DNA of 64,000 nt from an uncultured virus (IMG/VR IMGVR_UViG_3300042569_000394). Lineage: Duplodnaviria > Heunggongvirae > Uroviricota > Caudoviricetes. The translations under genes and the position numbers were made by a program. Where the stretch lies: IMG/VR virus record IMGVR_UViG_3300042569_000394; one strand, written 5' to 3'. This document shows, piece after piece, positions 27,549-62,026 of the stretch. Below the pieces are notes generated by a model. That model searched no databases, had not been told where the DNA came from, and worked only from the letters and a program-made list of their open reading frames with translations. Each line of letters begins with the position of its first letter. Position 1 is the first letter of the stretch.

Positions 27549-28205
27549 CTATACCTCTTCCAGGCTCAGAGACACACCCCAGAGGTCGTGCCCATATCCT
27601 CGTTTTTCTACTGAGTATGAAAAGTCTGAAAAGAAAACTTCTATAACATCTGAGTATTTGTGTAGATTGTTATACTTGTTTTGACCAGTAAAGTTATCGT
27701 ATCTATCGTATGATAGGAATAGCCAGAATGAACCTTTGTGGTTTTCATACCAGTCAAGCAATTCAATACCGCCAGCACCTCCGTCTGCCGTATACATCTG
27801 GCTCATGCCGTCTGATACAGTTGAGGTTGTTCTTAGAACTGCAAGACCATTCTCGTCAAACTCTGGTGATGCAGCATAGCCTCTAGATGGCAGTCTTTGC
27901 CAAGATGTAGAAATCTGTACCTTGTCTGCAATGTGATATGAACGCATACGACCATTGACCATACGCTCACGCTTTTCAATTCTTTGTGGCTTGAAAGATA
28001 TTTCTCCACGGTTGTGGTCAGATAGCACTAGGAAGGTCCCAGCCTCGTCAGGAGACTCTGCAATAATATCCCCATCTGATCCTAGTTCATAACCTACAGG
28101 GACGTAGAAGCCCTGCTCTGTGAGTGTTCCAGGGGTATCTGAAAGTAGCATGGCCTGTGGCCTGCCCCACTTCTTTCTACCTGCCATATACGCTGATGTG
28201 GTCAT
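27549..28205 (-). CDS. Distal-tail-like minor tail protein
   Basis: Directly after the tape measure; ends in SLSLEEV. Confidence 0.65.
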   Translation of the reverse strand: MTTSAYMAGRKKWGRPQAMLLSDTPGTLTEQGFYVPVGYELGSDGDIIAESPDEAGTFLVLSDHNRGEISFKPQRIEKRERMVNGRMRSYHIADKVQISTSWQRLPSRGYAASPEFDENGLAVLRTTSTVSDGMSQMYTADGGAGGIELLDWYENHKGSFWLFLSYDRYDNFTGQNKYNNLHKYSDVIEVFFSDFSYSVEKRGYGHDLWGVSLSLEEV

Positions 28206-31200: not shown

Positions 31201-34200
31201 CAGATAAGAGTTGATCTTGGTAATCGCTTGCAGCAAATGAATCGCTAATTTGTTGCTGAGTTTCGGCTGTTTTGTTTAGTAGTTTCTGTCGGGCGGTGAT
31301 GTATTCATTTTGTAGTCTTTCTGCTTTGGCTGCGTTGCCTGCTGCTTCGGCTACTTTAATTCTCTTTTCATAGTCTAGTTCTAGAGAGTCTAGTAGTTGC
31401 TTTTGTTGGTTTAGAGCAGCAGCCTGGATTGCTACGTTTGCACCTGCAAGTTTACCCAAGCGTTTTCCATACTCTTCAGAGGCTGTGAAGTATCCAGTAA
31501 TTCCTCCAGCAACTGTTCCGATAACTGCCCCAATTCCAGCACCAATTGGACCAGCAATCATCGATCCTGCAACAGCACCTGCAGCAGCACCCACACCAGC
31601 ACCAGCAGCGATACCGCCAAGCATCATTCCAGTTTCATCGCCATTCCTCATGCCACTATTTTCTATATTTGTTGCCGCAGTAGAAATCTGTTCTTGAGAT
31701 TGCTGTATGATTTTTGTTCTAATTTCTAAACCATTTTTAAGAATGTCTTCGCCGTTTGGTCCCATGAGGCTTGCTAGTTCTCCAGCAACCTTGATGCCAA
31801 GGTTTACGTTACCCATCTTTTTACCAATGCTAATGGCAATACTTCTCGCTTGCTTTGTTGTTATTGCATTAGACAAAACTGCTGTAGAAAGTTGAGCAAA
31901 TAGTGCCGATTGTTGAGAGGCCCCACCCATCGCAGCACTTGCTGATCCTAGGGCTTTGGTCGTTGCTTGACCAGTTTCAGACTCAACAAAACTTTCTCCA
32001 AATGTTGATTTTCCGCTAACAACTGTAAATGGGCTAAGTTGTCCCTGCCTACGCCTATCCATAATTTCAGAGGCAGTTACCTTGCCAGCAAAGTCAGCGA
32101 GTCCTTGAATTGCTTTCGCACCAGCACCAATTGAATCAGTGAATTCAAGAACCTTGTCAATTCCGCTAGCAATCGTGTCGTTATATTTTGTCATTGAAAG
32201 CCAAGCAACGGCGACGGCTGCTGCAAGTAGGGTAATGAAACCCATAGTTTTACCCATATTTTGAAGTAGCATCGTAAGCATTGAGAAGCCACCAAGAAGT
32301 GGTGTGATTGCTTGTGCTACTTTTCCAACTTCTCCACCCATCATCGAAAGGCTACCCATAACCATAGATGCTGTCATCATGTATCCAGAAAGGTTTCTGG
32401 TGAATTTCTCCATGCCAGCACCCTTAGTCTTGGTTCCTGGACCTGCACCATCTCCACCAGGAACTCCCTTGCCCTGCTGAATGTTATTCAAAAGTTCTTT
32501 GTCAATAGCAATTCCACGCTGTTCTGCTAGGCGTAGTCTTTCCTTAATTACCTCGGACTCAAGGCCGTTGGCTTCCATATCTTGAATAAGAGCGTTTTCT
32601 TTTTCTTGCATTATCTGCATGTCTCGTGCAGCAGCATCAAGTTCTTGTTGGGTAAACTGATATCCTTGTTGGTGCTTTGCTTGAAGAATTTCTGCCTGTG
32701 TTTGAAGTGCAAGATATTCTTCATCAGTACCGAGAAGCATTTGCTGTGCTAGCATCTGTCTCTGTTCGTGGATCATGGTCCTAGACTGAACTTCTTTATC
32801 GATATTGTTTTCGAAGTGGTTCATAATCTTAGTTCCTGCTGCAACAACCTTAGCCTTTAGTTTTTCAAAGCCGTTAGAAAGCATTGTAAGGCCCTTGTCT
32901 GCAATGGCTGATGCAGCCTGTCCTGCAAGTTTTCCACCTGCTGGCCCAAAGGCTCTTGTGCCGTAGAACTGTCCAGCAGCACCAGCAGCCATGCTTGCTA
33001 CCTTAATCTTTGCACGTTGTACTAGACCAAGTTTCTTCGCTGGCTGTTCTGCTGGCGGTACTGATTCAGCACCCTGATTATAAGACTGTTGATCTTGTGC
33101 ACCTAGGTCAAAGGCATCGTGGTGTGGACTACTACGCTTTGCTTTATCTTGAATTAATTCAAAGGGGTCGTCCTGTGGGGCAACAACACTCTCAGCACCG
33201 TCAATAAATTCACCCATATCTCCTGCACCAGTTGCTGAAGGAGGAACTGTGTTAGCCATTGGCACACGAGGTCTGTCATTCCTAATTCTTGATTCTCTAA
33301 TTGATGATGCTGGCCTTGGCAACAGTGTTCCGTCTGGTGCAATTGAGTGTTTTCCGTCTTCGGTCGTGGGGAATCCAGCAGCATCTAACTGCTCACGAGC
33401 ATTTACTCTAACATCATAAATATTGCTCTCTAGTTGTTCGATTGTTGGACTAATTCCAGCAATCTGAGGTCCTAATTTTTCTCTTGCTTTTCCAATAATA
33501 TCTGCAACCTGAGAAGATCTTATGTTTAGTTCACCAAAGTTTTCAACAGCCCTGAGAATTTCTTGATCTAATAGTTCTATTTCTGGTAAGTGTTCTTCCC
33601 AATTTAGCCCAGCATTTTCAAACGTCTGCTTCCATTTTTCGGGACCACGCCTCTTAAAGTCTGCAGCAAAGTCTGCTGTTGGTACTGGATTGTCAAACTT
33701 CATCTTATTGTTAAGTTGCGAATCTTGTGCAAAAGTAAATCCAGAGCCTGCTATAACTTCAAAGTTTGGGATATATTTAATATACTGTTCTAGTTGTTTT
33801 TTGAATGCTCCCTTTATTTGGTCTGTTCCTGATGCTAACAGTTCCGAGGCTAACATTGTGCCAGATTCTTTTACGTGAGCCTGATCTGTACTATATATCT
33901 CGCTTGGATGTAACCCTAGTGGCACTCCTGCCTGCTTTGCTGCTGGTGGATAGTAAGAAGGCCTCATGTTGACTTCTGGCCTTTGTTCTGTTCCAAGGTT
34001 TTTATTTTGAGTGAAGAATTCTGTCATACTTCTTTCAGCAACTGTTTTTGCCTGCTGTACATATATCTTAACTTGCTCTAAAAGGTCTTTTTGAAGTTCA
34101 CCCTGTGTATTTTTTACAATAAGTTGAATTTCTTGTCTAAGTTTTGCTTCAAATAGGTCTGGGTTATTGCCACCATATTTTGACATTGCTTCAGAAACAA

Positions 34201-37200
34201 CGCTTTCCTCATCAAACGGTTCTTCTCCAAGAATACCGCCTTGTGATAGTTTAAGAACCTTTCCAGAAATTAGGCTTTCTACTAGGCCTCTGTTTCTTGA
34301 TACGGAATCAGCAGGTATTACTGCTTCTCCATTTGAAAGCATTGCAGGGATTGAATCGCTTGTTCCTGTACCAGGGCCAGAAACCATACCGCCTCTGGCA
34401 TATTTTTGAACCCCATACCCAGGATTTGTTCCAATATTCCAGTTAACATATTCTGATGGACCAATTTCAAAACCTTGATATCCTTCTTTTATTAATGACT
34501 GAATAAATGGGTCACCTATCTTACCGCCAATACCAGAAGAGTATGGGTCTAAGCCACCTTCTTGTAGATCGTACAAAATTCCCTCTACAACATCAGACTT
34601 GAGACCACCATTCTTTATCCAATCCATTGCTTTTTGTTTTAGAATGCCATCGTTACCCCAGCCATTTATATAACCTTTACCACCGATAGTTTGTTTGAGT
34701 GCGTCATCAGACATAGAAATCTTATACTCATTTTTACCCCATAGATTCTTTTTACCAGTAGCAAAATCTCTTTCTCCAGTGACTGCCGAAAAGTACATTC
34801 CTTTACCAAGGTTTGAGATTCTATAGTTACTTGGCACAGTATCTGGGTGCAAAAGTTCTGATAGTTTTGGATTGTTGGTTTGGTGTACAGCAAGTTTATC
34901 CATAATTGCAGCCTTGAGTCCAGGGGCTAGAGAGTCCCAGTTTCCTCCAGATTGCTGCACCATATCATTTAGTGTTTTTAACTGTATTGCGTCTTGTCCG
35001 TTTAGTGGCTTAACCTGTTTTAAAAATTCTAGGTATGAGTTGTCAAAACTCATAGGATTTAGTCCAAGAGATTTTCTATCTGGAAGAATACCACCCTTAG
35101 CCATCTTGAGTATTCCACCCATAGCCATTTTCTTGGGGCTTTTCTTCTTTTTAGCAGTAGGGAGTGGGTTAAGCATTGGTGGTGTGCGACCTGGGAAGTA
35201 CTGTGCCCACTCTGCAGAGATCTTAGCCTGAATCTCTTCTGGGGTCATGTCATAGTACTCGTCAGTTATTTCGCTATCCATTAGGTCGTTAGCAAATAAG
35301 TATTGTTCGTAGCGTTTACGAGCAACGGTGGTTTCTGGGCTATCATATTTACCTTCTGGCAATTTTTCATAGGCTTTTTCCATAGCAACAAATGCTAGTG
35401 CGGTTTCGTAGAATCCTCTGGCTTCTGTTACGTCTGCTGGTTCTTGTTCTGGAACAACTTTACCCTTTCCAATGATTCCACCCTTAGCCATCTCAAGTAT
35501 TCCACCCATAGCCATTTTTAGAGGGTTAAATGCTGGTATGCCTAACAGGCCAACAGCACCACGTGTCTTATCCATATCGTCATAGAATTCTTCAATCTTG
35601 TGATCGCTCATCAACCTAGCAGTTTTTTCATACTTCATTCGTTCTGGTCTGCGATAGTCTCCGTCTTTTCTTGACATCAATCTAACCTTGGTTGTGTCAA
35701 TTCCAAGTTTGGCTAGAGTTTCTAGGGTAATGTTATCAGCAGACTTGGGCCTTGCTGTCATAAGAATAATCGTGTTTCCACGTGCTTGTGCTTCGTGAAG
35801 TTTGGCAATGGTTGCAGGCATTCCAACTGGGTTCTTTGCTACCTCAGTTTTCCAGTCAAGTCTTTCTTCTACTGGAAGTTTTTCATTTGCTGCTCTGTGT
35901 CCAGGCATAAACGATCTTAGATCAAGCAGGGTGTCGTCAATGTCAAAGATTGATGTTGGTTTTCTTGGGTCAACGTTTTCTCCAACAATACCGCCCTCTG
36001 CCATCTTCTTTGGTGGAGTAAGTTTAAGGTTGCTGTGAAGTGCGTGATACTTTGTCCAGTCTACACCTCTTGCAGCCTCTAGACGAGCAACCATGTTTCC
36101 GTATACTGCCTGTTCTTCTGGTGTTAGGTCTGGGAAGCCAGCAATTGTTTGTTTAAGTCTTGGAAGCGTTTGCTCAATCTCATTACGCATTCTGTCTTGG
36201 TATTCTTGTGGTGACATGCTTGCAGCAATACCCTTAGTGCTTTCAGCAAACCATTTCTTTGCACCACCCTTTACTCCAAGAAGATTAATAAGAGCCTGTT
36301 CTTCCATGGACTTCATGTTAGGTTCGTATTCTCTGAATCCAGATGCCTTTGCAAATACCCCTGCAGTTCCGACATCTGGAAGAATGTTTCCTCCGAGGTT
36401 TCCCTGTCCTAGGTCTTTATCTCCACGCAGTAGCGATGCCACTAGTTGTGTTGTATATTCTTCCTTTGAGAATGTTTGTGGAACTTCAGAGAACGTTGGG
36501 TCAAAGTCTGACTCAAGGGCATAGAACCTTCTGGTTCCAGTCTTGTCTGTAGGGTCGTTGATTGCAACAAGTCTTTGCTGTGGTGATCTCAGACCATGAG
36601 CACCTCTCGCAATCTCTGTTCCACGAATTTCTGCCATAGCAGACTGGAAGTCCATAACTGGCTTTACGAATACTTTACGACCATCAAAGGTCTCGTACAT
36701 TCCACCAACTCTAAATAGTGGGAAACTGTGTCCCTTAGATACTGAAAGTTGGTGCTTGTATTTTGTTACTGGCATGTCTGCTCGTGGTGATTCAGCAAAC
36801 TTAGCATAAACCGCCTGTGCGTCTTCTTGACTACGCTGTCTAGCCTTAAACGACTGTGGCATTCCAAGGAACTGCTTTTCTCCCTTGTTAACAATTCCAC
36901 CTTCAGCAAGTTTTAGAACCTTACCAGAAATAAGGTTTTCTACAAGCCCTCTGTTTTTCTTTACTGATTTTGCTGGAATAACGGCTTCACCATTAGACAA
37001 CATTGCTGGAACTGAATCTGAGGTTCCTGTTCCAGGTCCAGAAACCATTCCACCCCTAGCAAATTTTTGTGGAGCAATGTTGGTTGGATTAGTTCCAGCA
37101 GGACTATACGCTCTCTGGGCATCTATGTTTCTTACATAAGACTGAGTTAGTTGATCTACTGCTACCGCTTCTGAAGTAAATCTTTGTGTTAGTTGTTGGT

Positions 37201-39052
37201 GAATCTGGTCAAGAGATGCTGCTACCGCTGCTGCCTTGATCTGTGTTTCGGTCATGTATGTGGTTGATTCTCCAAGCATACCTGTTTCTTGTGTTGTTCT
37301 GTTAATGAAAGACTTGATGTTGACAAACATCTTGACAAGGTTTGCAATACCGTTCGCTACTAGACCAACAGACATAAGAAGTAGTGGACCAACACCAGCA
37401 ACCAAACCTGTAAATGTTACCCAGAAGGCTTTTGACCCTTCTGACATTTTGTTAAATCCGTCAAGGAACTTAGAAACAAAATCTAGGATTGGGGTTACTG
37501 CCTTAAGGAATGCCTCTCCAATTGGAGCAAGTTTAACCTTGATATCCTCAACAGCCTTTTGAAACTTAAACATTGGGGAACTTTCTACCCTCTTCAGTTC
37601 TCGCTCAGACAGGATTGCAAGTTCTTCTGTGGTTGCGTTACTTAGTTCTAGAACCTTTTGTGCCTGAGTTCCTTCTTGAATTACGTTTTGGAACAATGTC
37701 GATAGACGTGAAAACTGGAACTTACCGAACATTTGCTCAATGGCACGTGCTCGGTTTAGTGGGTCTAGGGTATCTAGTGCACTAGCAAAATCTAGGACAA
37801 GGCCCTTTACATCGCCCTTGTTTGCCTCAACAATGCCCTTAACATTTACACCAAAACTTGCAAGGAACTCAGATGCTTTTCCTGTTGGGTTAATCAAAGA
37901 TGCAAGACCAGACTTAAGTGCGTTAGCACCCTCAGATGCGTTAATTCCACCTTCCTTCATTGCTGTCAGGAAGAATGCTAGATCTTGTACGTCTCCACCA
38001 AGTTGTTTAACAACTGGTGCAGCCTTTGGAATAGCAATGGTGAGGTCTTCGATAGATGTAACAGTTTGGTTTTCAACTGCGTTAAGGAAGTCAATCTTTC
38101 CTGCTAGGTCTTCTGCTGCAATTCCAAAAGCGTTAGTTAGAGACATTGTTGTTTCTAGTGCTTGTGCCTGTTCTACAGATCCAAGTACCGCAAGTCTTGT
38201 AGCATTTGCTACCTGCTGCATAAGGTCTGCTCCGACCTTACCTGCTGCTGCTGCCTCGGCAGCCATTTCCATTGTGTCTGCTACCGCAACACCATACTTA
38301 GTGTATTCCTGAGCAAGAATTTTTAGGTTCTTAATCATGTCTTCTGATTCTTTTGCAGTAGTTCTAAAATCTCCGTAGACACGCTTAAACTTGATAGAAC
38401 CCTTTTCTAGTTCCATGTACATCTTTGCTGCTGCAGTACCTGCCATTGTTAGCGGTACGGTAAAACCAACCATCAACTGACGACCAGCCCACTGGGTGTT
38501 CTTACCCCAGTTGAGAAGGTTAGTTGATCCTTGCTTTAGTAGTTGGTTTAGTATCTGTTGTTTCTGGGCAGCGATGGCTGTTTTTGTTCCCAGGTCATTC
38601 ATGTCAAGAACTAGAGGTCTAACTGCGATTGCCTTCATGGCACCGCTAGCGTCACGGCCTAGTTGGATGTATTGGGTTTGAAGAGTCTTGACTCTTTCAC
38701 GAGCAACCTTATCAATGGTTGACATTTCGGACTTGAATAGTTTTCCGAAGTTCTTTGTTGCACCGCCAGCATACCTAAAGTATTGGCCCATTGAGAGTTT
38801 GTTTTTCTCAAGTGCTTCTGTAAAAGACTCTGTGGTGGTCTTGATGTTTTGAATGCTTGCATTAAACTTACCTGCAGCATTAATATCATTGATTAGATTT
38901 TGTCTAAGTTTGGCTGCTGCTGCTGCTTGTGTGGCAGAGCCACGAGCCATCTGTGTTTGGAAGGCTGATATCTGAGACTGTAACGCCTTTAAATTTGCTA
39001 AGGCCTGACTGGTATCAATATTAATATTGATATTAGTCTGAGAATCAGCCAT
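28205..39052 (-). CDS. Tape measure protein (3615 aa) with embedded enzyme-like domains
   Basis: Follows tail tube and chaperones; TP901-type core (ASEGANALKSGL...AIEQMFGK), hydrophobic segments, glycine zipper, coiled coils; internal kinase, HAD and ART motifs. Confidence 0.93.
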   Translation of the reverse strand: MADSQTNININIDTSQALANLKALQSQISAFQTQMARGSATQAAAAAKLRQNLINDINAAGKFNASIQNIKTTTESFTEALEKNKLSMGQYFRYAGGATKNFGKLFKSEMSTIDKVARERVKTLQTQYIQLGRDASGAMKAIAVRPLVLDMNDLGTKTAIAAQKQQILNQLLKQGSTNLLNWGKNTQWAGRQLMVGFTVPLTMAGTAAAKMYMELEKGSIKFKRVYGDFRTTAKESEDMIKNLKILAQEYTKYGVAVADTMEMAAEAAAAGKVGADLMQQVANATRLAVLGSVEQAQALETTMSLTNAFGIAAEDLAGKIDFLNAVENQTVTSIEDLTIAIPKAAPVVKQLGGDVQDLAFFLTAMKEGGINASEGANALKSGLASLINPTGKASEFLASFGVNVKGIVEANKGDVKGLVLDFASALDTLDPLNRARAIEQMFGKFQFSRLSTLFQNVIQEGTQAQKVLELSNATTEELAILSERELKRVESSPMFKFQKAVEDIKVKLAPIGEAFLKAVTPILDFVSKFLDGFNKMSEGSKAFWVTFTGLVAGVGPLLLMSVGLVANGIANLVKMFVNIKSFINRTTQETGMLGESTTYMTETQIKAAAVAASLDQIHQQLTQRFTSEAVAVDQLTQSYVRNIDAQRAYSPAGTNPTNIAPQKFARGGMVSGPGTGTSDSVPAMLSNGEAVIPAKSVKKNRGLVENLISGKVLKLAEGGIVNKGEKQFLGMPQSFKARQRSQEDAQAVYAKFAESPRADMPVTKYKHQLSVSKGHSFPLFRVGGMYETFDGRKVFVKPVMDFQSAMAEIRGTEIARGAHGLRSPQQRLVAINDPTDKTGTRRFYALESDFDPTFSEVPQTFSKEEYTTQLVASLLRGDKDLGQGNLGGNILPDVGTAGVFAKASGFREYEPNMKSMEEQALINLLGVKGGAKKWFAESTKGIAASMSPQEYQDRMRNEIEQTLPRLKQTIAGFPDLTPEEQAVYGNMVARLEAARGVDWTKYHALHSNLKLTPPKKMAEGGIVGENVDPRKPTSIFDIDDTLLDLRSFMPGHRAANEKLPVEERLDWKTEVAKNPVGMPATIAKLHEAQARGNTIILMTARPKSADNITLETLAKLGIDTTKVRLMSRKDGDYRRPERMKYEKTARLMSDHKIEEFYDDMDKTRGAVGLLGIPAFNPLKMAMGGILEMAKGGIIGKGKVVPEQEPADVTEARGFYETALAFVAMEKAYEKLPEGKYDSPETTVARKRYEQYLFANDLMDSEITDEYYDMTPEEIQAKISAEWAQYFPGRTPPMLNPLPTAKKKKSPKKMAMGGILKMAKGGILPDRKSLGLNPMSFDNSYLEFLKQVKPLNGQDAIQLKTLNDMVQQSGGNWDSLAPGLKAAIMDKLAVHQTNNPKLSELLHPDTVPSNYRISNLGKGMYFSAVTGERDFATGKKNLWGKNEYKISMSDDALKQTIGGKGYINGWGNDGILKQKAMDWIKNGGLKSDVVEGILYDLQEGGLDPYSSGIGGKIGDPFIQSLIKEGYQGFEIGPSEYVNWNIGTNPGYGVQKYARGGMVSGPGTGTSDSIPAMLSNGEAVIPADSVSRNRGLVESLISGKVLKLSQGGILGEEPFDEESVVSEAMSKYGGNNPDLFEAKLRQEIQLIVKNTQGELQKDLLEQVKIYVQQAKTVAERSMTEFFTQNKNLGTEQRPEVNMRPSYYPPAAKQAGVPLGLHPSEIYSTDQAHVKESGTMLASELLASGTDQIKGAFKKQLEQYIKYIPNFEVIAGSGFTFAQDSQLNNKMKFDNPVPTADFAADFKRRGPEKWKQTFENAGLNWEEHLPEIELLDQEILRAVENFGELNIRSSQVADIIGKAREKLGPQIAGISPTIEQLESNIYDVRVNAREQLDAAGFPTTEDGKHSIAPDGTLLPRPASSIRESRIRNDRPRVPMANTVPPSATGAGDMGEFIDGAESVVAPQDDPFELIQDKAKRSSPHHDAFDLGAQDQQSYNQGAESVPPAEQPAKKLGLVQRAKIKVASMAAGAAGQFYGTRAFGPAGGKLAGQAASAIADKGLTMLSNGFEKLKAKVVAAGTKIMNHFENNIDKEVQSRTMIHEQRQMLAQQMLLGTDEEYLALQTQAEILQAKHQQGYQFTQQELDAAARDMQIMQEKENALIQDMEANGLESEVIKERLRLAEQRGIAIDKELLNNIQQGKGVPGGDGAGPGTKTKGAGMEKFTRNLSGYMMTASMVMGSLSMMGGEVGKVAQAITPLLGGFSMLTMLLQNMGKTMGFITLLAAAVAVAWLSMTKYNDTIASGIDKVLEFTDSIGAGAKAIQGLADFAGKVTASEIMDRRRQGQLSPFTVVSGKSTFGESFVESETGQATTKALGSASAAMGGASQQSALFAQLSTAVLSNAITTKQARSIAISIGKKMGNVNLGIKVAGELASLMGPNGEDILKNGLEIRTKIIQQSQEQISTAATNIENSGMRNGDETGMMLGGIAAGAGVGAAAGAVAGSMIAGPIGAGIGAVIGTVAGGITGYFTASEEYGKRLGKLAGANVAIQAAALNQQKQLLDSLELDYEKRIKVAEAAGNAAKAERLQNEYITARQKLLNKTAETQQQISDSFAASDYQDQLLSGAEKVVTKKYKGTAQEDLATIAIENLRSSVTDKGQRYNLLLDLGTTIDPDSMLLLTSLVKNDADVMQKAFDIRTNLTGTGLAQVLQVSRMFVDENGKSNKKMQAEFVTKMSTVKGEKAEQLLQMYSELGRMNSNWIDATVLVDFVSKRPDVEKALMEDIEEIKNLKPKMLTVDIVQRASILNEQAMDVLRDNEKYFSTIKTKAEQQIYLSYVATFSGTMNFEDPNFLAWLSSPENKDGAKADIVGWGMYTDFVARRAVNDRILVDNTVGAGNQNNNGGGPSASWLDDYVKGVRDLTDASQKLTVGYSASQKALEAFAKKGSSFKNMFSGLTNNLFAANVSQDIIDNILGMPKEEAEKEMKRFFDSSGKATKFLKQLNEISARQKIEGQFVGGLQATKSIYDRVDATKALALGNQNAALTSELMADSDMVLALSGIKLIGNLKDQKKAVHELAKAKLANLAAERLSKGTVQNEIDDAQVRIDTLEAENGVYQNGLDIISKKAEKINETYDKQIQALQEVKSVNDDIARQKQGELDIADALSRGDIGAAAKAAQQLRAQNAQAAADAQVKALEDAKKRAVDALTVEINGQKLSRADLEQKMYDIQLQVLEIRKDEIVQNEVILAKQREILNTLVAQTAEQIKKNAEASKPQTQTITRKVVNAGSGTGTGVVDDVPGSPPADPGKITTVKDAVAALKTSNRFRQGPNTSLSNLYGYTRTPDASGNTAEDLFRTANQRRNEEFGKLGLDKNIRLQDQKKWATLTADQKTNLLNLQATYDRTAEKSLSFLSKNLQQSTSKAFSLLSPAIRDSLELLKANAETYKTLKDNYTQANNSLAAREKAIGPSPMASEKAELKALSDARDVAHDAYQKYKGPNIDPLVSALAGSGIGTAELKAFGVQGFKMGGMVMPQRFLAGGFARGTDTIPAMLTPGEFVVSQPAVKSFGVDNLKSINSGTYGGDSVYNYSVNVNVANSGANANDIARTVMAQIKQIDSQRIRSNVL
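34229..34402 (-). repeat. Copy 2 of the 58-aa xARGG...GPGTGTSDS.PAMLSNGEAVIPA...KVLKLxxGG module
   Basis: Near-identical in protein to 36890-37063. Confidence 0.9.
35084..35131 (-). repeat. Direct repeat B encoding KMAMGGILKMAKGGIL
   Basis: A 41-nt core matches 35478-35518 with 2 mismatches. Confidence 0.9.
35471..35518 (-). repeat. Direct repeat A encoding KMAMGGILEMAKGGII
   Basis: Matches 35084-35131. Confidence 0.9.
36890..37063 (-). repeat. Copy 1 of the 58-aa FARGG...GPGTGTSDSVPAMLSNGEAVIPA...LAEGG module
   Basis: Paralogous to 34229-34402 and, more distantly, to the C-terminal module starting at 28510. Confidence 0.9.
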
Positions 39053-52376: not shown

Positions 52377-53066
52377 TTATTTTTTAAAGGACTGATAAAA
52401 ATCATGGATCAAACTGTTATATATCTTTGTTACGTTACTCAAAGATTCTCTATAAATTGGATTTTGTAGTTCTTTTAGAATTTCTGAATAAAGTGGGTGG
52501 GTGTCTCTGGGCACATGCCCCCTTTTGCTAAAAGACTCATCATTTTGATTAACCATTTTGCTTAGATCAGATGTCTTCTCAAATATGTTTTCGGGACTTA
52601 GGGGCACTCTTTTTTCTAAACCATACTTAGCCTCTATTAAGTCCAATGTACCAACTATGTCAGAGGTGACTTTTTCAAAAGGTATAACAAATACATTAGA
52701 ATTGTTCTGAGCACAATAGATCAGATCTCCGTACAGGTCTATTAACCTTGTAAAGTTTTTACCTTTTTCAGGTTCTTTTAGCGAAAGGTACACAGAACAA
52801 GACGCTATTGCGTCTAGGGGGTTCCGAATTACTGATACTACAGGAAATGAACCATCTGCAGTTGTTAGATTCTTAGAGTCGTGACTATGACTTTGCACAG
52901 CCATATTAGGCCAAGACATGTTTAAGGCTGTTACTAAGAATGTGTTCGCAGATCTTGGAAAACCTTCAACAGCAAAATCTGGACTTGTTACGAACTTACC
53001 GTCCCTGCTTTTTGTCTCTGCAAAAAGTTCTGCAATAGTTTCATAAGCATTGTTTGATGATGACAT
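52377..53066 (-). CDS. Sulfotransferase-like protein
   Basis: 5'-PSB-like GFPRSANTFL, 3'-PB-like IRNPLDAIAS, VIPFE. Confidence 0.7.
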   Translation of the reverse strand: MSSSNNAYETIAELFAETKSRDGKFVTSPDFAVEGFPRSANTFLVTALNMSWPNMAVQSHSHDSKNLTTADGSFPVVSVIRNPLDAIASCSVYLSLKEPEKGKNFTRLIDLYGDLIYCAQNNSNVFVIPFEKVTSDIVGTLDLIEAKYGLEKRVPLSPENIFEKTSDLSKMVNQNDESFSKRGHVPRDTHPLYSEILKELQNPIYRESLSNVTKIYNSLIHDFYQSFKK

Positions 53067-53797
53067 TACTTGTATGACCTTCTTGTCCAGACTTTATCTT
53101 TGTAGACTCCACCATCTGGTATTCTATATATCTCTGCAGTTTCTTTATGCTTTTCAAACATCTGCTCTACCGACTGAATAACTGGTTCAGATTCCCAGTT
53201 GTCTCGTTTAAACGGTATCATCTGAGCATAAACAGTGCCTGCTGGAATAATACCTTGAAAAGATCTGCTAACAAAGAATGGCATCATTCCAGGTTGATTT
53301 ACAGCGTCATTATCGATAATACCGCTAGTGGTCAAAAACGGAAGTTCAAACCTATTTAGTGGATGGGTGTAAAGAACGCTATATCCTTCTGGGACACCAA
53401 CGCCCCAGTCGGGGAGCCAGGCAAAGTGATGTGGGTGATATCCTAAAGGATTCTGAAACTGAGGCATAGGTGGACGTTTTGTGCAAAAGTCTTGGTATGC
53501 AGGATTTTCTATTCGTACCTGTATAACGCCTGCTTCATCTAAATAAAATTCTAGATCACATGGAGTCTTGAGTGCATACCCAGAACCCATTATGTCAAAC
53601 ACTGCTGGGCAAGACTTCCAGGTAGGGACCTTACCTCCGTCTGGGCCTTTCCAAACTTCATTAGTTACTGGGTCTACTGCAAACCTATCTGCTTTCCTAT
53701 ACCATTCTGGAATGGTTTTTATAATAGGCTCGGGCTTGGAGATGCTGTTAGCAGTTAGCCATGGACGATTAGAAAAAAACTTAATTATGTTTGTCAA
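53066..53797 (-). CDS. Hypothetical protein of a type often found next to phage 2OG oxygenases (beta-rich)
   Basis: PEWY, TWKSCP, GY...TP, HPLNR...SGIID.D, GT..AQMIPFKR; TTG start with AGGA RBS. Confidence 0.6.
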   Translation of the reverse strand: MTNIIKFFSNRPWLTANSISKPEPIIKTIPEWYRKADRFAVDPVTNEVWKGPDGGKVPTWKSCPAVFDIMGSGYALKTPCDLEFYLDEAGVIQVRIENPAYQDFCTKRPPMPQFQNPLGYHPHHFAWLPDWGVGVPEGYSVLYTHPLNRFELPFLTTSGIIDNDAVNQPGMMPFFVSRSFQGIIPAGTVYAQMIPFKRDNWESEPVIQSVEQMFEKHKETAEIYRIPDGGVYKDKVWTRRSYK

Positions 53798-53849
53798 TTG
53801 CGGTTCCTAAATTTAAGGTTATGTATAGTTGTTAAAGTTAACTAGGTTA

Positions 53850-54506
53850 CTAGTTTCCAGTTTCTTTGTACATCTCTGGAGTGTGGAACTTTGCACTGTA
53901 GTCAAGCATGGTAACAATAGAATACTTAAATCCAGATTCTACTGGCATTGCTCGGTGTGGATACATAAAGTTTGATGGAAACAAGAATAGGTCTCCAGCC
54001 TTTGCTTTTACCTTAAGGCCTTGTAGGCGGAAAAACAATTCTCCACCTTCATAGTCATCATTAGGGTAGAGTACCGCAGATAGAGTGCTGTTATATGAGA
54101 ATCCATGATCAGTGTGCTCTTGGAAGTGTTGCCCTGGTCCATACTTAATAAAGTTATTAGCCTCCCAGTACTTAAGTTCGCCAATAGGGAATCTTTGGCA
54201 ATAGTCTGCAACTGGGCCAACCATGGAGTTGTGAACTACATCCCAAATATCTCTAAGTTCATCGCCAGCAGGGGACTGATCGCTATCTATGTCTGTACGC
54301 TTATATTTGAAATCGTAGCAATCACGGTACTCAGGCATCTTTTGTGCATAACCAACCATGGCTTCAGCATATCCATAGTGGCTTGTAGGGTCTTCTAAAA
54401 CGGCTTCTAGTCTTTTGATTATTTCCATGCCGTTAGGAAGTGCATCGTGGTACACAAATATTCCTGGTGCTAGTTCTTCTTCTGATGTCCAAGTTCTTTC
54501 AGTCAT
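53850..54506 (-). CDS. 2OG-Fe(II) oxygenase, prolyl 4-hydroxylase-like
   Basis: KY..GQHF..HTD (HxD), Y.NDDYEGGE, FPS...YPH...PV.SG.KYSIV. Confidence 0.88.
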   Translation of the reverse strand: MTERTWTSEEELAPGIFVYHDALPNGMEIIKRLEAVLEDPTSHYGYAEAMVGYAQKMPEYRDCYDFKYKRTDIDSDQSPAGDELRDIWDVVHNSMVGPVADYCQRFPIGELKYWEANNFIKYGPGQHFQEHTDHGFSYNSTLSAVLYPNDDYEGGELFFRLQGLKVKAKAGDLFLFPSNFMYPHRAMPVESGFKYSIVTMLDYSAKFHTPEMYKETGN

Positions 54507-54530
54507 TCATTTCTCCTAATTGTTATCTTG

Positions 54531-55226
54531 TTATGTGCCTACAAAGCCACCAAAGTAAGGTGGGAAATATGGGCCAAAGGTGGGTGGGAAGTATGGAGGA
54601 AAATATGGAGGAAAATATGGTGGGAAGTATGGGGGTAGCGTCGTTACACTGTTAGAATTAGCAGAATACGTTCCATTACCGTTGTCATTTTCTGCACGAA
54701 CTTGATACGTCTGAGCAGTGTTTGCTTCCTGGCTAATTGTTACAGAGGTTGATGTAGTTGTTCCAGTTTTTCCATCAGATGATGTCCACCTATAAAGATT
54801 GATGGTTTTACCACCATTTGAGGGGGCGGTCCAAGATAATGTGTCTGAGTCAACTCCAGCGGTTGCAGTTGGAGTTCCAATGGTATTAGGAACAGTAGTA
54901 GCAGTGATTGCTGTAGAGGCTGAAGATGCACTAGAGGTACCTGCTGCGTTGGTAGCGGTAACAGTAAATGTATAAGAAGTGGCTGACTGCAATCCTTCAA
55001 CCGTTAGTGGTGACGATGATCCAGTCGCTGTAAAACTACCTGGGCTAGAGGTTGCGGTAAATGAGGTGGCTGCAGGAGAACCAGCAGGTAGGCTAAAGGT
55101 TACTGTGGCTGCTCCGTTGTTAAATGCTCGGTTAGTTCCTACGTCAGTAGCAGATACGCTTACTGGCGTAGAGGGCTGCAAAAAGTCGTTTTGCGACTGC
55201 GACTTTCTTCCTGCTCTTTTACTCAT
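54531..55226 (-). CDS. Two-FN3-domain protein with a C-terminal (PPYF)n tail
   Basis: GLQSATSYTFTVTATNAAGTS and WTAPSNGG...YQVRAEN FN3 signatures. Confidence 0.85.
   Translation of the reverse strand: MSKRAGRKSQSQNDFLQPSTPVSVSATDVGTNRAFNNGAATVTFSLPAGSPAATSFTATSSPGSFTATGSSSPLTVEGLQSATSYTFTVTATNAAGTSSASSASTAITATTVPNTIGTPTATAGVDSDTLSWTAPSNGGKTINLYRWTSSDGKTGTTTSTSVTISQEANTAQTYQVRAENDNGNGTYSANSNSVTTLPPYFPPYFPPYFPPYFPPTFGPYFPPYFGGFVGT
54552..54635 (-). repeat. Seven 12-nt units encoding PPYF x4, PPTF, GPYF, PPYF
   Basis: Read directly; synonymous codons differ between units. Confidence 0.95.
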
Positions 55227-55238
55227 CCGTGGTCCTTA

Positions 55239-56636
55239 CTATGCGGTTAGGTCACCAAACACAAGCCAAGTGTTTGAGGCTCTCTTTAATAGTGTAGCAG
55301 AAGACCACTGAGTACGCAACTTTAATCCAGGCGTAGCATTAACAGTAACGCCCACAGCACCTGCAATTGTTACCTGACCAGAGCCAGTCTGGATGATGTC
55401 TAGTGTAGTTCCTACTGGGTAATCTACTGTTGCATCTGTAGGAATTGTCAGGGTAGTTCCAGTTGATTTATTAATTTCAATAATTGTGTCACGCTCTGTT
55501 AAGGAGGCGAGGGTGTATGAATCGGTCTTCTGCGAGATTGTGGTGATAGACGGTACGCCAACCTTAGTCTGTGTGCCGTCAGTAAAAACAACGCCTGCTA
55601 CTTCAATGTTATTGACTGCTAGATCATCTAGAGAACCTTCACCGAAAGCAACTGTTGTTGCTGGTTCGGTTTCTACTCCTTTAAAAATTTTCCAGATGTT
55701 AGCAGATACATCTCTTACGATACCTGCATGTTGTGCTGTTCCGTCATTGTATCCAACTACTAAACCAAGATCAACGGTGTTTGCTGAATTTGTGTGAGCA
55801 ATCTGAATCATGTTGTCTTCAATTGTAATGCTGGTGGCAGATGCTATAAATTCAGTACCGTTTACGGTAAGGTTTCCGTCAACAACGAGGTCCTGATCGA
55901 TCTCAACTGAGCCTGTAAATGTTGCTCCTGAAAGTGATGCCTTTGCATCAAGTGCTGTTTGTGTTGCAGTAGAAATAGGCTTATTAGCATCCGAGGTGTT
56001 GTCTACGTTGCCAAGACCAACGTGAGTCTTTGTTACACCTGATACAGTGCCTGTAAAGGTTGGATCTGCAGTTGGGGCTTTAGCGTCTATCTGAGTCTGA
56101 ATAGCAGAGGTAACTCCGTTTACATATCCCAGTTCAGTGCTACTAACGTCTCCGATCGAAGTTGTGTTTGGTAGAACAACCGTTCCTGTAAATGTAGGTC
56201 CAGATAGTGGGGCGTAAGTAGTAGAGGCGGTAGCAGATGCTAGTTTTGCGTCTAGTTGGGTTTGTATAGCACTTGTAACACCATTTACGTATGCAAGTTC
56301 AGTAGCACTTACATCTCCAATAGAGGTTGTGTTAGGAAGGGTTACAGTACCGCTAAAAGTAGGGCCAGCAAGAGGAGCCAGAGAGGCTAGATCAGCAGTA
56401 ACAACCAAATCAGAGGTGTCTTCAATTCCATGTACGTTTGTAGTAAGGGCAGCGTGATCAGACACGGCGTTAGGTGCAGGAGCAGCATATGGACGAGAGT
56501 TCCAGGCTGTACTTCCATTACCAATCTTAAATCTACCAGTATCGGTTTCAAAACCAACCTCACCTGTTGCTAGAACTGTATTTGCAGCGGTCCACTCAGC
56601 AGCAGTTCCTCTTCTCTGTAGCATTCTTGTTGCCAT
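55239..56636 (-). CDS. Tail fibre protein (Mtd-N-like N-terminus, fibre repeats, C-terminal adaptor-like domain)
   Basis: RRGTAAEW...GEVGFETDTGRFKIGNG; GLGNVDNTSDANKPISTATQ; duplicated PTFxGTVxLPNTTSIGDVS. Confidence 0.85.
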   Translation of the reverse strand: MATRMLQRRGTAAEWTAANTVLATGEVGFETDTGRFKIGNGSTAWNSRPYAAPAPNAVSDHAALTTNVHGIEDTSDLVVTADLASLAPLAGPTFSGTVTLPNTTSIGDVSATELAYVNGVTSAIQTQLDAKLASATASTTYAPLSGPTFTGTVVLPNTTSIGDVSSTELGYVNGVTSAIQTQIDAKAPTADPTFTGTVSGVTKTHVGLGNVDNTSDANKPISTATQTALDAKASLSGATFTGSVEIDQDLVVDGNLTVNGTEFIASATSITIEDNMIQIAHTNSANTVDLGLVVGYNDGTAQHAGIVRDVSANIWKIFKGVETEPATTVAFGEGSLDDLAVNNIEVAGVVFTDGTQTKVGVPSITTISQKTDSYTLASLTERDTIIEINKSTGTTLTIPTDATVDYPVGTTLDIIQTGSGQVTIAGAVGVTVNATPGLKLRTQWSSATLLKRASNTWLVFGDLTA

Positions 56637-56692
56637 ATTTAAATTCTCCTAATGGGGTCTACCCAAGCATATATAAACTAATTATAACATAA

Positions 56693-56953
56693 TTATTCGA
56701 TGTTTCCAGCATCAATTGTTGCGTCCCAGACTTCTGTTGTTGGGGTACCGCCATCTGTATATGTTGCTCCATCGACATCTCCACCATCTAGATTACTTCC
56801 TGGGAGTGCAGATATCACTGCGTCTAAATACTCTTTTGTTACTGCATGATCTGGGTCTGTTGGACTACCAACAACGACTGGGCCACCGAATGAACCGCTG
56901 CCATTTACGGCAAGGCCATTCTTAACTTTAAAGTCTTTATTATTAGTGGTCAA
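56693..56953 (-). CDS. Small fibre-associated protein
   Basis: KDFKVKNGL, HAVTKEYLD, DGG motifs; AGGAG RBS, TTG start, TGGTATAAT. Confidence 0.7.
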   Translation of the reverse strand: MTTNNKDFKVKNGLAVNGSGSFGGPVVVGSPTDPDHAVTKEYLDAVISALPGSNLDGGDVDGATYTDGGTPTTEVWDATIDAGNIE

Positions 56954-60334: not shown

Positions 60335-60913
60335 ATGAAATTTAAAATTGCTGCAATAGGACTTGTGGTCCTAACGATAACAACCTGCTCTGTACCAGCA
60401 GGTGCTAAATTAATAGAAGACCCAAACAACGTTTATCAGAAAAAGACTAGCGTTAGTTCGGTTTTTAATGTGCAACCCCAAAGAACCATACTGAGCGATC
60501 ATTATCTAAAAAATCAAACCCTGGTTAATAATGGACTAAAAGTCAAGTCCGTGGTCAAGAAACTAAAATCAACGGTCGGTAAGACCTGGTACGTCTTTTC
60601 TGGAAGTACTCCTTCTGGATGGGACTGCTCTGGTTTAACAATGTGGTTTTATGAGCAACTTGATATCCCCCTAGAGCACAGGGCTTCTAAACAACAGATT
60701 GCTGGAAGAGCAACCAACAACCCAAAGCCTGGGGATCTCGTAATCTTTAAATACAAAGGGTATAAGACTGCGTATCACGTTGGTATCTATATTGGTGATG
60801 GACTTATGATTCATGCCCCAAGAAAAGGCGAAGTAACTAGAGTAGAGTCAGTTACCCAATTTGGTGGGAAGTATTCTAAGATTAGTTACAGAAGTTTAAT
60901 AGACGTTCTTTAG
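60335..60913 (+). CDS. Secreted NlpC/P60 (C40) peptidoglycan endopeptidase
   Basis: Signal peptide; GWDCSGL, PGDLV, HVGIYIG...IHA (Cys-His-His); AAGGAGGT RBS. Confidence 0.93.
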   Translation: MKFKIAAIGLVVLTITTCSVPAGAKLIEDPNNVYQKKTSVSSVFNVQPQRTILSDHYLKNQTLVNNGLKVKSVVKKLKSTVGKTWYVFSGSTPSGWDCSGLTMWFYEQLDIPLEHRASKQQIAGRATNNPKPGDLVIFKYKGYKTAYHVGIYIGDGLMIHAPRKGEVTRVESVTQFGGKYSKISYRSLIDVL

Positions 60914-61362
60914 TTACAGTCTGGTGCGGTTATTCCAGCCTTGTTTGGGTCATTGTCATAACCAACAGCACAACTCCAACTACTGCCAATTTCTCCAAGG
61001 TTATTTAATAGATTATATCTATCAACACAGTTTGTATTTGCTGCAAAGGTTGGCCCAGAAGGTCCAAAGTTTGGCTCACAATATGAATACCAGATACCCA
61101 AAACTCCTGGCGGTGGCTCAACATAATTATATGTTACATAAGAAACTGATGTTGATCTTTCTGCATCTGAGCCAGCAGAAAGTGATTGAGAGGCAACCGT
61201 TCCATTGTTTCCAGAGGTTGCTCCAGTTGTTGTTGTTGTGACTGTTCCCACAGATAGGTTTGCAGATGCAAGTGTTGAGTTTGCTACTGTAGAAGATAGC
61301 CCAATAATGCTTGGAACTATAACTCTAGACCAAGACGAAGCAACATATCCAATTGAACCCAA
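60910..61362 (-). CDS. PASTA-domain protein with a Cys-containing C-terminal domain
   Basis: VIVPSIIGLSSTVANSTLASANLSVG...NGTVASQSLSAGS...SVSYVTY matches the PASTA pattern; GAGGTGA RBS and TTG start. Confidence 0.7.
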   Translation of the reverse strand: MGSIGYVASSWSRVIVPSIIGLSSTVANSTLASANLSVGTVTTTTTGATSGNNGTVASQSLSAGSDAERSTSVSYVTYNYVEPPPGVLGIWYSYCEPNFGPSGPTFAANTNCVDRYNLLNNLGEIGSSWSCAVGYDNDPNKAGITAPDCN

Positions 61363-61375
61363 ACTGTCACCTCTC

Positions 61376-62026
61376 CTAAGACTTCAAATCACCAATTAGT
61401 ACCCAAGTGTTTGTATCTATTTTAATTAGGGTTGCACCAGAATATTGTGCATTAAGTTTTAGCCAAGAGTTTTTGCTATTAAGGGTTACTCCGCTAGCAA
61501 CTCCAAATGCCACGGTACCGCTGCCGAGTCCAACAAAATCAATCTTTGTGCCAATGGCAAATGGAACAGATGTGTTTGTTGGGACTGTGATTGTTACTGT
61601 TGAGCCAGAGTTTACTGTGATTGTCTTTGATGAATCTGGCAAAGCAATTGTGTAGTCTGAGGTCTTTGCAACAAATGCGGTATCTGCGTAGTTTACCCAC
61701 TTGCTTGTTACAGAAGAATAATATTGAATCTGGTTTGCGGTGTTAACTCCGTTTACAGTCTTTACGAATGCTACAGTTCCGTGATCTGGTGATGGAATTG
61801 CTGCGTCACGAGCAGACTCTGTTTCAAAATTATTGACACCGCCCTGGGCCTTTACAACTTCTTCAAAGGTTACTTGCTGGTCGTTAAATGTGTGTGTGCC
61901 AGTCCATGTGTAATCTGCGTTGGTGCTAGCGATTCCAATAATTGGGTGCCAACTTCCATTTCCTGCAGGAGTTGATTCTTTAAATACATAGGCAACTCTT
62001 GACTGGTTGCTTTTAGTTGCTGCCAT
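61376..62026 (-). CDS. Fibre protein with the same C-terminal domain as 55239-56636
   Basis: FETESARDAAIPSP..G; TITVP...FAIGT.I...GVTLN...LKL..QYS.ATLIK..TNTWVLIGDL. Confidence 0.78.
   Translation of the reverse strand: MAATKSNQSRVAYVFKESTPAGNGSWHPIIGIASTNADYTWTGTHTFNDQQVTFEEVVKAQGGVNNFETESARDAAIPSPDHGTVAFVKTVNGVNTANQIQYYSSVTSKWVNYADTAFVAKTSDYTIALPDSSKTITVNSGSTVTITVPTNTSVPFAIGTKIDFVGLGSGTVAFGVASGVTLNSKNSWLKLNAQYSGATLIKIDTNTWVLIGDLKS

Follow-up and report, generated by a model that had tools for sequence, protein, structure and literature searches.

What the enzymes encoded directly behind a proline-rich phage repeat act upon is the question raised by five ORFs of an uncultured lake phage, located at positions 52377-56636 of the window, that is, the whole 64,000-nucleotide stretch of DNA that was analysed. 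The ORFs, like all features described here, lie on the minus strand, confirming the co-directional run described in an initial sequence-only reading. They encode, in order, a 465-aa tail-fibre-like protein (55239..56636), a 231-aa carrier protein with two FN3 stretches (54531..55226), a 218-aa Fe(II)/2-oxoglutarate (2OG) oxygenase of the prolyl-4-hydroxylase (P4H) type (53850..54506), a 243-aa dUTPase-fold protein with an invariant cysteine (53066..53797), and a 229-aa PAPS-type sulfotransferase-like protein at the module's end (52377..53066). Intergenic gaps from the fibre gene to the 243-aa gene measure 12, 24 and 52 nt, followed by a 1-nt stop/start overlap with the sulfotransferase-like gene. 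That no obvious internal terminator is present, as had also been stated, holds for the spaces between the five genes, where no terminator-like hairpin was found, although three of the ORFs contain such hairpins, in numbers expected by chance (7 versus 4.3 +/- 2.2 in shuffles). A promoter-like site upstream of the fibre gene (56681..56708) consists of a sigma-70 consensus match only (10/12, extended -10), and sigma-70-like sites occur in the region at chance frequency (10 observed versus 12.0 expected). Because the minus-strand run extends past 52377 into a 1250-aa gene and the portal gene, the lower edge of the module was set by comparative genomics rather than by transcription signals.

The candidate substrate is a (PPYF)n tract of 13 Pro, 6 Tyr and 7 Phe at the C-terminus of the FN3 protein (residues 198-225, 54552..54635; fn3 E 3e-9 for the carrier). 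The tract is encoded by mixed synonymous codons, and comparison with three diverged relatives gives a pS of 0.62-0.77 versus a pN of 0-0.017, meaning that the peptide is near-invariant at synonymous divergence approaching saturation. The peptide is thus under selection, as the earlier reading had supposed from codon variety. Contigs from sequencing runs other than those flagged as the source match the repeat with 0 differences, and a diverged 9.9-kb contig aligns without gaps across the entire stretch, with 313 differences; slippage or assembly artefact as the origin of the repeat was rejected on the mixed codons, the pN/pS values and this gap-free contig. In all six frames, the 75-kb contig contains no other tract of this type, and none was found in 666,981 nt from 73 cellular FN3 loci, 0/73 of which contained any cassette gene. 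Homologues of the FN3 protein bear Pro-Pro/aromatic, FSPFG-type or Gly-rich tails at one common junction, the tail being in effect a swappable payload.

The fibre protein carries an N-terminal Mtd_N domain (PF18454, E 7e-14) and matches phrog_8780, a minor tail protein (E 5e-23), along with several tail-fibre PHROGs. Its C-terminal domain (residues 359-465, 55242..55562) is taken as the start of a mobile module from the edge of shared DNA and from its adjacency to FN3 genes. DNA in common with two sheath-encoding phages (L083 and L084) runs from 55595-55597 to 52457-52502, from the fibre C-terminal domain to the end of the sulfotransferase gene, and since the backbones of these phages are unlike, the shared DNA shows that the block moves as a unit. 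The FN3 gene lies directly after an ORF ending in this fibre domain in 118 of 142 FN3 matches with upstream room (not de-replicated), a gene order from which the domain is likely the docking site for the FN3 protein; a profile of the domain gave no useful match in the PDB.

The oxygenase scores 50 bits against PF13640 (cut-off 27, E 6e-13) and is the only PF13640 match on the contig. Residues H131, D133 and H184 of the HxD...H iron triad are invariant in nine aligned rows, as is K194. This lysine, at His+10, aligns to Arg in LH3 and PiuC, and DdPhyA likewise has Arg; in collagen and algal P4Hs a Lys, Lys511 in C-P4H, is described as binding 2OG (PMC9676403), and by its position K194 may be the ligand of the 2OG carboxylate. 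A profile search of the PDB returned a bacterial prolyl 4-hydroxylase, 5hv0, as its top match, albeit a weak one (E 6e-6), and a single-sequence search ranked PiuC and LH3 first (E 0.002-0.006). The enzyme appears to be P4H-like and of the Lys type, and is a putative prolyl 4-hydroxylase.

The 243-aa protein (phrog_7084, E 4e-30) gave no match when its profile was searched against PDB sequences, and its fold came from an alignment-based AF2 model (pLDDT 94.7, versus 32 for a single-sequence fold). The top matches of this model in Foldseek and VIA-align, including the top 14 VIA rows, are all dUTPases or dCTP deaminases (Z 9.2, rmsd 2.5 over 118 residues for the dUTPase fold). The protein itself has no Pfam match to DUF6065 (PF19541), which is matched by 8 of 73 homologues at E <= 0.1; profile comparison by hhalign with DUF6065 neighbours (96.7%, E 3e-10) identifies its family as a sister, if distantly related, to DUF6065. 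Trimeric dUTPases possess five catalytic motifs. The full set was not found in the 243-aa family when its alignment was inspected by eye: the family retains a G-I-I-D-x-D motif and one Gln but lacks the Tyr of motif III, the Arg-Ser pair and the Gly-rich loop at the C-terminus, and PF00692 is matched by only 1/73 members (E 0.075). Residue C63 is kept in 73/73 homologues. The protein may help the oxygenase, for instance as reductant or scaffold; relatives are also present in haloviruses, where the 12.7 kb inspected contains no gene annotated as an oxygenase.

The 229-aa protein itself has no Pfam, PHROG or NCBIfam match, and is called sulfotransferase-like because of the PF00685 matches of its homologues, its Atlas feature neighbours and its invariant motifs. 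Among 41 aligned homologues, PF00685 is matched by 12 (E <= 0.1, best 6e-7) and PF13469 by 11, and R38-S39-A40-N41 as well as R81, P83, D85 and S89 are present in 41/41. These conserved motifs are presumably the 5'-phosphosulfate loop and the 3'-phosphate binding motif, and the protein is best described as PAPS-type sulfotransferase-like, probably of the PF00685 clan. A single-sequence PDB search gave no match, and the best sulfotransferase matches of the profile were weak (E about 1), with no tyrosylprotein sulfotransferase of the TPST/RaxST type among the PDB matches.

Taken together, the gene identities (by homology and fold), the selection on the repeat, the movement of the block and the co-occurrence of tail and enzymes are best explained by a portable self-tailoring module in which the prolines of the tail would be hydroxylated and the tail then sulfated, a reading whose chances are about even. 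The FN3 protein would dock on the fibre C-terminal domain and display the tail on the virion. The oxygenase would convert prolines within the (PPYF)n tract to hydroxyproline, perhaps assisted in some way by the dUTPase-fold cysteine protein, and the sulfotransferase-like enzyme would use host PAPS to sulfate the tail, most probably at the newly formed hydroxyproline. The fibre tip would become anionic, and more soluble or differently adhesive. The parts of this scheme differ in strength: proline hydroxylation of the tail is probable, sulfation of the tail overall could equally be right or wrong, and hydroxyproline as the sulfate acceptor is a tentative assignment, slightly favoured over Tyr. 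More broadly, freshwater actinophages may sulfate fibre-tip hydroxyproline, each tail repeat travelling together with a dedicated hydroxylase family and a swappable capping enzyme (sulfate or GlcNAc) and the four-gene block representing the minimal unit, but this generalization is possible rather than probable.

Bacterial operons with a similar logic have been predicted, in which hydroxylases and sulfotransferases accompany co-encoded substrates of collagen-like or tail-collar type (Iyer, Abhiman, de Souza and Aravind 2010, PMC2938197). In those operons, as in the phage block, a 2OG oxygenase and a sulfotransferase adjoin a repeat or fibre-like protein and suggest hydroxylation followed by sulfation, a prediction in both cases. 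The bacterial examples involve beta-hydroxylase/PhyH families, often PAPS synthesis, and Gly-rich or tail-collar substrates, whereas the present block is a lytic-type phage module that pairs a P4H-like PF13640 enzyme with a Pro-Pro-Tyr-Phe tail poor in Gly. No APS kinase match occurs on the contig, which is about 70% complete so that absence is not implied. With neither a beta-hydroxylase/PhyH enzyme nor a Gly-rich or tail-collar substrate, the phage block stands outside that operon type, and the parallel is one of how the system works. Literature searches for sulfated hydroxyproline, phage sulfotransferases, PPFF/PPYF repeats and DUF6065 returned no relevant paper; further phage neighbourhoods may be listed in the supplement of Iyer et al. 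2010.

The sequence-only reading had held the repeat to be the substrate of the adjoining enzymes, and a gene-neighbourhood survey supports this view, although linkage alone could give the pattern. Among 97 de-replicated FN3 rows, the oxygenase family of the window lies behind 68 of 69 Pro-Pro tails, and behind none of the FSPFG-type (0/11), Gly-rich (0/15) or other (0/2) tails; in a subset of 63 rows from an FN3-anchored scan the corresponding counts are 34/35, 0/11, 0/15 and 0/2. FSPFG-type tails are accompanied by another 2OG family in 10/11 cases, and two Pro-Pro tails inside the FSPFG-type FN3 clade (L048 and L057, on an unstarred branch) are found with the P4H-like set. In the reverse direction, with the 243-aa protein as anchor, a Pro/aromatic tract was present upstream in 47/47 loci that had 4 kb or more of upstream sequence (not de-replicated), and loci anchored on a (PPYF)3 DNA pattern alone have a related oxygenase within 4 kb in 30/34 (de-replicated). 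The main competing explanation, though rather unlikely, is that the tail goes unmodified and serves as a hydrophobic adhesin, and that the enzymes hitch-hike in a recombining tail-fibre island, their target being a small molecule, nucleotides or a protein of the host. Independent switches of tail and enzyme are few (6 label changes on a quick tree, of which starred branches force 2 for Pro-Pro, 1 and 1), and joint recombination of adjacent genes would yield the same pattern; 5/102 tracts have no related oxygenase within 4 kb, and a 53-residue PPFF tract (L055) has no enzyme behind it. Related arrays contain up to about ten oxygenases, beyond the apparent need of a four-letter repeat, and the dUTPase fold could point to nucleotide chemistry. 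In the Synechococcus phage Syn9 array, too, 2OG oxygenases stand alongside a protein of dUTPase fold that has a conserved cysteine, a match to the 243-aa protein, and small-molecule halogen chemistry has been suggested for the array's ten oxygenases and halogenases, with no substrate gene named in the sections relied on here (Iyer et al., PMC2938197); unlike Syn9, the present block combines a single oxygenase with a sulfotransferase-like enzyme and has a candidate substrate encoded alongside. Chlorovirus PBCV-1 provides a further precedent, since its P4H hydroxylates Pro-containing peptides (Eriksson et al. 1999, as cited in PMC7019647 and PMC9301287) and hydroxyproline was nonetheless not detected in purified virions (PMC7019647). 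PBCV-1 shares with the lake phage a viral P4H-type enzyme, but is a eukaryotic virus with no sulfotransferase partner reported in the excerpts of these sources used here, and no PBCV-1 chain is among the 12 PDB matches of the oxygenase profile. Against mere linkage, the slot behind FSPFG-type and Gly-rich tails lacks this oxygenase family in 26/26 cases, the enzyme genes begin directly behind the repeat gene in unlike phage backbones, and the oxygenase is of a peptide-hydroxylase type, and the tail is the sole Pro-rich tract found on the contig (about 70% complete).

If the tail is modified as proposed, the nature of the second step is less certain than that of the first. Sulfotransferases of two families occur in 12/102 cassettes, and 90/102 have none within 4 kb. 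Two apparent fusions in opposite order, sulfotransferase-oxygenase in L275 and oxygenase-sulfotransferase in L024, make the suggested sulfation plausible; their sulfotransferase domains score 45.5 and 22 bits on a custom profile built from 4 sequences, and Pfam does not call them. Another possible cap is found in 5/102 cassettes, which encode GlcNAc transferases of PF11397, assumed here to be the family of Gnt1 (Gnt1/GT60); a PF11397 protein had no informative match in the PDB, and PF11397 has no match on the contig, where the control too was without a match and incompleteness (about 70% complete) means that absence is not implied. No cassette (0/102) has both cap types, but as about 0.6 would be expected by chance this is no evidence. 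Capping of a hydroxyl that was introduced by prolyl hydroxylation has a precedent in the Skp1 PhyA/Gnt1 pathway of Dictyostelium and Toxoplasma (PMC6939170), which differs in modifying one Pro of a folded eukaryotic protein, with an Arg-type hydroxylase and a sugar instead of sulfate.

Tyrosine as acceptor, independent of hydroxylation and giving a sulfotyrosine-rich tip, is an unlikely variant falling within the overall estimate for the self-tailoring module. The lineage of the window has the highest Tyr share among the 69 Pro-Pro rows (0.46-0.47 of aromatics, next 0.37), its tail tyrosines are kept under both codons at near-saturated pS though Phe is one base away, and the sole other cassette with a PF00685-like enzyme (L312; custom profile, 30 bits) is Tyr-rich too (0.38). 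Sulfotransferases accompany 6/16 tracts with a Tyr share of at least 0.3 versus 6/86 below, an association (Fisher p 0.03 with the window's lineage collapsed, 0.09 with it left out) drawn from a sample anchored on those very features and counting that lineage as one event. Within 4 kb, 10 of the 16 Tyr-rich tracts have no sulfotransferase, and two Tyr-free tracts (L048 and L136) adjoin one, favouring a non-Tyr acceptor. Together with the absence of tyrosylprotein sulfotransferases from the PDB matches, these counts leave Tyr weakly supported, and the strong form, that a Tyr-rich repeat implies a sulfotransferase, was rejected on 80 pattern-anchored loci. In Xanthomonas RaxST/RaxX and plant PSY peptides, too, a Tyr-containing peptide stands beside a sulfotransferase, but RaxX/PSY is a secreted signal mimic with its own exporter, and the phage block gives no indication of Tyr specificity, of secretion or of a receptor to mimic; the receptor mimicry once suggested for the repeat thus obtained no support.

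That the oxygenase hydroxylates the tail and the sulfotransferase is a later passenger, whose acceptor is a glycan or some other host or phage molecule, is quite improbable. Its nearest outside relatives do reside in glycan loci, one adjoining a GDP-mannose dehydratase and a glycosyltransferase (L167) and another behind Wzc, flanked by a flippase and a further sulfotransferase (L173); it evolves faster than its neighbours (dN 0.24-0.32 versus 0.04-0.11); and its exact family is confined to one lineage among the viral loci fetched, a metagenome scan (7 loci) adding no new cassette lineage. The gene nevertheless lies inside the block common to phages with unlike backbones, overlaps the upstream stop codon, and is under purifying selection (dN/dS about 0.1-0.2), and the block contains no glycosyltransferase gene, while other cassettes contain apparent fusions with an oxygenase. 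The RiPP-like product also raised by the sequence-only reading, a small released peptide with the FN3 pair as leader, fits the logic of precursor and tailoring-enzyme genes and the Cys-rich variable ends of 14/102 tracts, but is very unlikely given that the block has no peptidase or exporter (contig about 70% complete), that tracts range from 16 to >160 residues, that in relatives they are followed by Hint or S74 fibre-chaperone domains, which are associated with fibre and spike maturation, and that the same carrier accepts a folded Gly-rich domain (PF21722).

Were the self-tailoring reading true, hydroxylation and sulfation would join phage virion chemistry as a means by which a phage decorates its own virion, and enzymes for Pro/aromatic peptides would be gained. 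On the broader reading, the DUF6065-like dUTPase fold would acquire a job, and a substrate would be named for the abundant phage P4H-like oxygenases, whose genes rank with the most frequent auxiliary genes in aquatic phages and were found at 62% of the water stations of a Baltic survey that terms their use 'cryptic' (PMC9301287). Related arrays, with a median of 3 oxygenases within 4 kb, are hard to dissect. What is new here is a minimal version with one oxygenase, a Tyr-rich tail and a sulfotransferase-like enzyme, and it is the cleanest test case, a tractable block in which a single oxygenase, a putative helper and a transferase accompany a candidate substrate of 28 residues.

The (PPYF)n tail gene and the enzyme genes behind it form a cassette that is real, selected and mobile. 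Five closely spaced open reading frames on the minus strand encode a fibre (55239-56636), a 231-aa carrier with two FN3 domains (54531-55226) whose C-terminal repeat occupies 54552-54635, an oxygenase (53850-54506), a 243-aa protein (53066-53797) and a sulfotransferase-like protein (52377-53066), and the frames, tail sequence and spacing all match the description in the sequence-only reading. The varied synonymous codons described there were also seen, and comparison of the repeat with three relative loci (L168, L003 and L045) gave pS of 0.62-0.77 and pN of 0-0.017; for the close relative L001 the values were 0.16 and 0. One sub-lineage has shifted register to (PYF)n with the tyrosine retained, and the identical repeat was recovered in contigs of runs without the source flag. 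As for the supposed lack of internal terminators, none of the terminator-like hairpins lies between block genes, but such hairpins do exist, at chance frequency. All block genes are under purifying selection, the sulfotransferase changing fastest (dN 0.24-0.32 versus 0.04-0.11 for the rest, with dS about 0.9-2.6).

The window represents bases 1-64000 of a viral contig of 75,143 bases that is about 70% complete. Its portal shares 47% identity with the portals of large Streptomyces phages, it encodes an HK97-type capsid, a prohead protease and a 3615-aa tape-measure-like protein, and its DNA finds its best matches in lake-water metagenomes; the source is likely a phage of freshwater Actinobacteria, labelled siphovirus-like because the contig has no recognisable sheath gene. 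Two relative loci, L083 and L084, have a capsid family that differs from the window's, and L083 has genes for a contractile sheath and a T4-gp19-like tube. DNA common to these loci and the window covers the stretch between 55595-55597 and 52457-52502, reaching from the fibre C-terminal domain through to the sulfotransferase end; part of the fibre 5' region is shared as well, as a separate piece. Since the shared DNA spans them, the fibre domain, carrier, oxygenase, 243-aa protein and sulfotransferase have moved jointly between unlike phages. Elsewhere in the window, the tape-measure-like protein (28205-39052, minus strand) contains a HAD acid-phosphatase-like domain (residues 1030-1154, E 4e-10), and a lone plus-strand NlpC/P60 gene (60335-60913) with a signal-peptide-like start sits amid minus-strand structural genes.

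The enzymes behind the carrier follow the type of tail. A scan of viral contigs confirmed at least 441 carrier relatives, with 79 loci returned; the FN3 pair is constant, and the tail behind it is a Pro-Pro/aromatic repeat, an FSPFG-type tract or a Gly-rich domain. Removing rows with less than 1.5 kb downstream and 95% near-copies reduced 149 FN3 rows to 97, some of which came from anchors on the sulfotransferase or the 243-aa protein. Of the 69 Pro-Pro tails in this set, 68 have an oxygenase of the window's family no more than 3.5 kb downstream; none of the 11 FSPFG-type, 15 Gly-rich or two other tails does. The FN3-anchored scan alone (63 rows) gave 34 of 35, 0 of 11, 0 of 15 and 0 of 2, respectively, and in the reverse test a tract was present in all 47 loci with at least 4 kb upstream, among 80 anchored on the 243-aa protein. 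The co-occurrence of PPxF-type tails and oxygenases that the sequence-only reading anticipated is thus borne out. Ten of the 11 FSPFG-type tails are accompanied by a different oxygenase family, with an H-D-H..H..R pattern, PF13759-like Atlas neighbours and no Pfam match.

Joint recombination of linked genes could yield the same pattern with no enzyme-substrate relation between tail and enzymes, and phylogeny limits the count, the tail classes needing only six changes on a quick tree (87 rows, with 10 short ones excluded). Within the FSPFG clade of that tree, on an unstarred branch, two loci (L048 and L057) carry Pro-Pro tails together with the P4H-like set. Linkage alone seems rather unlikely. 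Tracts also occur in other company: at L055 (5983-6762) a PPFF tract has no enzymes behind it, at L033 (1895-3043) a Tyr-rich FSPF-type tract has a 243-aa-like gene alone and no oxygenase, and at L285 (4867-8110) and L286 (6028-7407) PPxF tracts precede a wax-ester/DGAT acyltransferase, a P450 and an Anp1-like protein in place of 2OG oxygenases. A sister cassette, consisting of an FSPFG-type tail and then one to three copies of a Pfam-negative 2OG-oxygenase-like family, is found at L013, L014, L027, L028, L030, L034, L039, L041, L053 and L054.

The 218-aa oxygenase belongs to PF13640 and possesses H131-x-D133, H184 and K194. Among solved structures its profile matches a bacterial prolyl 4-hydroxylase best (E 6e-6); the sequence by itself puts PiuC and LH3 on top, as weak matches. 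Lysine at the K194-equivalent position is a feature of collagen and algal P4Hs (PMC9676403), and DdPhyA has arginine there (PMC7864055). Hydroxylation of the tail prolines is probable, with a real caution from PBCV-1, which has an active P4H although hydroxyproline was not detected in its virions (PMC7019647). The block would be expressed late, together with the fibre; the oxygenase would hydroxylate the tail prolines in the cytoplasm, using Fe(II), 2-oxoglutarate and oxygen; the tail would be sulfated from host PAPS (no APS kinase was found on the contig, itself about 70% complete); and the FN3 protein would dock onto the fibre end.

The 243-aa protein, an unknown in the sequence-only reading, now has a fold, that of trimeric dUTPases (model pLDDT 94.7); its role, as reductant or scaffold for the oxygenase, is a guess. 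Its profile matches DUF6065 proteins of related arrays, Cys63 is invariant in the family and, judged by eye, the dUTPase motif set is incomplete. The Syn9 oxygenase array described by Iyer et al. 2010 includes a similar protein, according to that paper (PMC2938197). Relatives of the fold at about 26-28% identity number some 50 records, mainly haloviruses, and in halovirus HF2 (L370:5905-6789) the gene is flanked by ribonucleotide reductase and tail genes, and the annotation shows no oxygenase nearby. Glutathione-peroxidase-like genes are common in oxygenase arrays (L282:825-1469, about 20 related loci, and L031:9727-10500) and may hint at redox demands of these enzymes.

The 229-aa protein is a predicted sulfotransferase, assigned through transitive homology and motifs, with no match of its own. 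Sulfation of the tail on any acceptor is an even prospect; as acceptor, hydroxyproline, itself a tentative choice, is placed slightly ahead of tyrosine. Because the highest Tyr shares in the 97-row set belong to four cassettes of a single lineage (the window's own), 80 loci, of at least 122 matches, were fetched by the (PPYF)3 DNA pattern alone. All anchors together gave 196 tracts, or 102 after removal of near-copies and those with less than 3 kb downstream. In this non-random sample, and with a 4-kb limit that under-counts long arrays, a related oxygenase lies near 97 of the 102 tracts and a sulfotransferase near 12 (four PF00685-like, three of them of the window's lineage, and eight PF03567-like); five tracts have a PF11397 GlcNAc transferase. 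Sulfotransferases stand beside six of 16 tracts with a Tyr share of at least 0.3 versus six of 86 below it, an association that favours the Tyr sulfation proposed earlier, but p is 0.03 with the lineage collapsed and 0.09 with it left out, and two Tyr-free tracts have a sulfotransferase. Tyrosine is an unlikely site.

The nearest outside relatives of the window sulfotransferase sit in glycan loci, which suggests an aliphatic hydroxyl acceptor or an enzyme that is a mere passenger. Apparent sulfotransferase-oxygenase fusions of opposite domain order occur in Pro-Pro cassettes (L275:5291-6766 and L024:9626-11068), their sulfotransferase parts called by a purpose-built profile and visible motifs rather than by Pfam, and a passenger is decidedly improbable. 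The place behind the hydroxylase is read as a capping slot, occupied by sulfate or sugar transferases; Gnt1, a GT60 enzyme, caps Skp1 hydroxyproline, according to two papers (PMC6939170, PMC3797821). PF11397 GlcNAc transferases were seen at L010, L102, L106, L273/L305, L327 and L027, mostly a short way downstream of the repeat gene. A phage cluster at L167 (515-6591) has a GDP-mannose dehydratase, a glycosyltransferase, a Stealth-like gene and up to three sulfotransferase-like genes, and glycan sulfation is possible there.

For bacterial operons whose substrates are collagen-like or tail-collar proteins, Iyer et al. 2010 predicted hydroxylate-then-sulfate chemistry (PMC2938197). The window cassette would be a phage version of the same logic and adds a variant to a predicted kind of system. 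Searches of a library with few subscription papers yielded nothing on PPYF-type repeats, phage sulfotransferases, DUF6065 or sulfated hydroxyproline, and as far as searched the cassette family is an odd one with no published explanation; the window holds its smallest, most testable form.

A gene ending in the same C-terminal domain as the 465-aa fibre (residues 359-465) directly precedes 118 of 142 FN3 hits in a redundant set, and pattern searches of 102 tracts found 14 Cys-rich ends, 11 Hint-like starts and six S74-like starts, examples of which have Pfam support. Because of this neighbour and these caps, the carrier looks more like an adhesin associated with the fibre than like a released peptide, and a RiPP-like product is highly improbable. 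Tracts continue into an S74 fibre-chaperone domain that is intact at L255 and split over two ORFs at L029, L060, L061 and L073. Another pair built in the same way lies at 60910-62026 on the minus strand, consisting of a 216-aa protein, whose C-terminal part matches the PHROGs of the fibre C-terminal domain (phrog_8780 and phrog_21978), and then a 150-aa PASTA-domain protein with a Cys-rich end.
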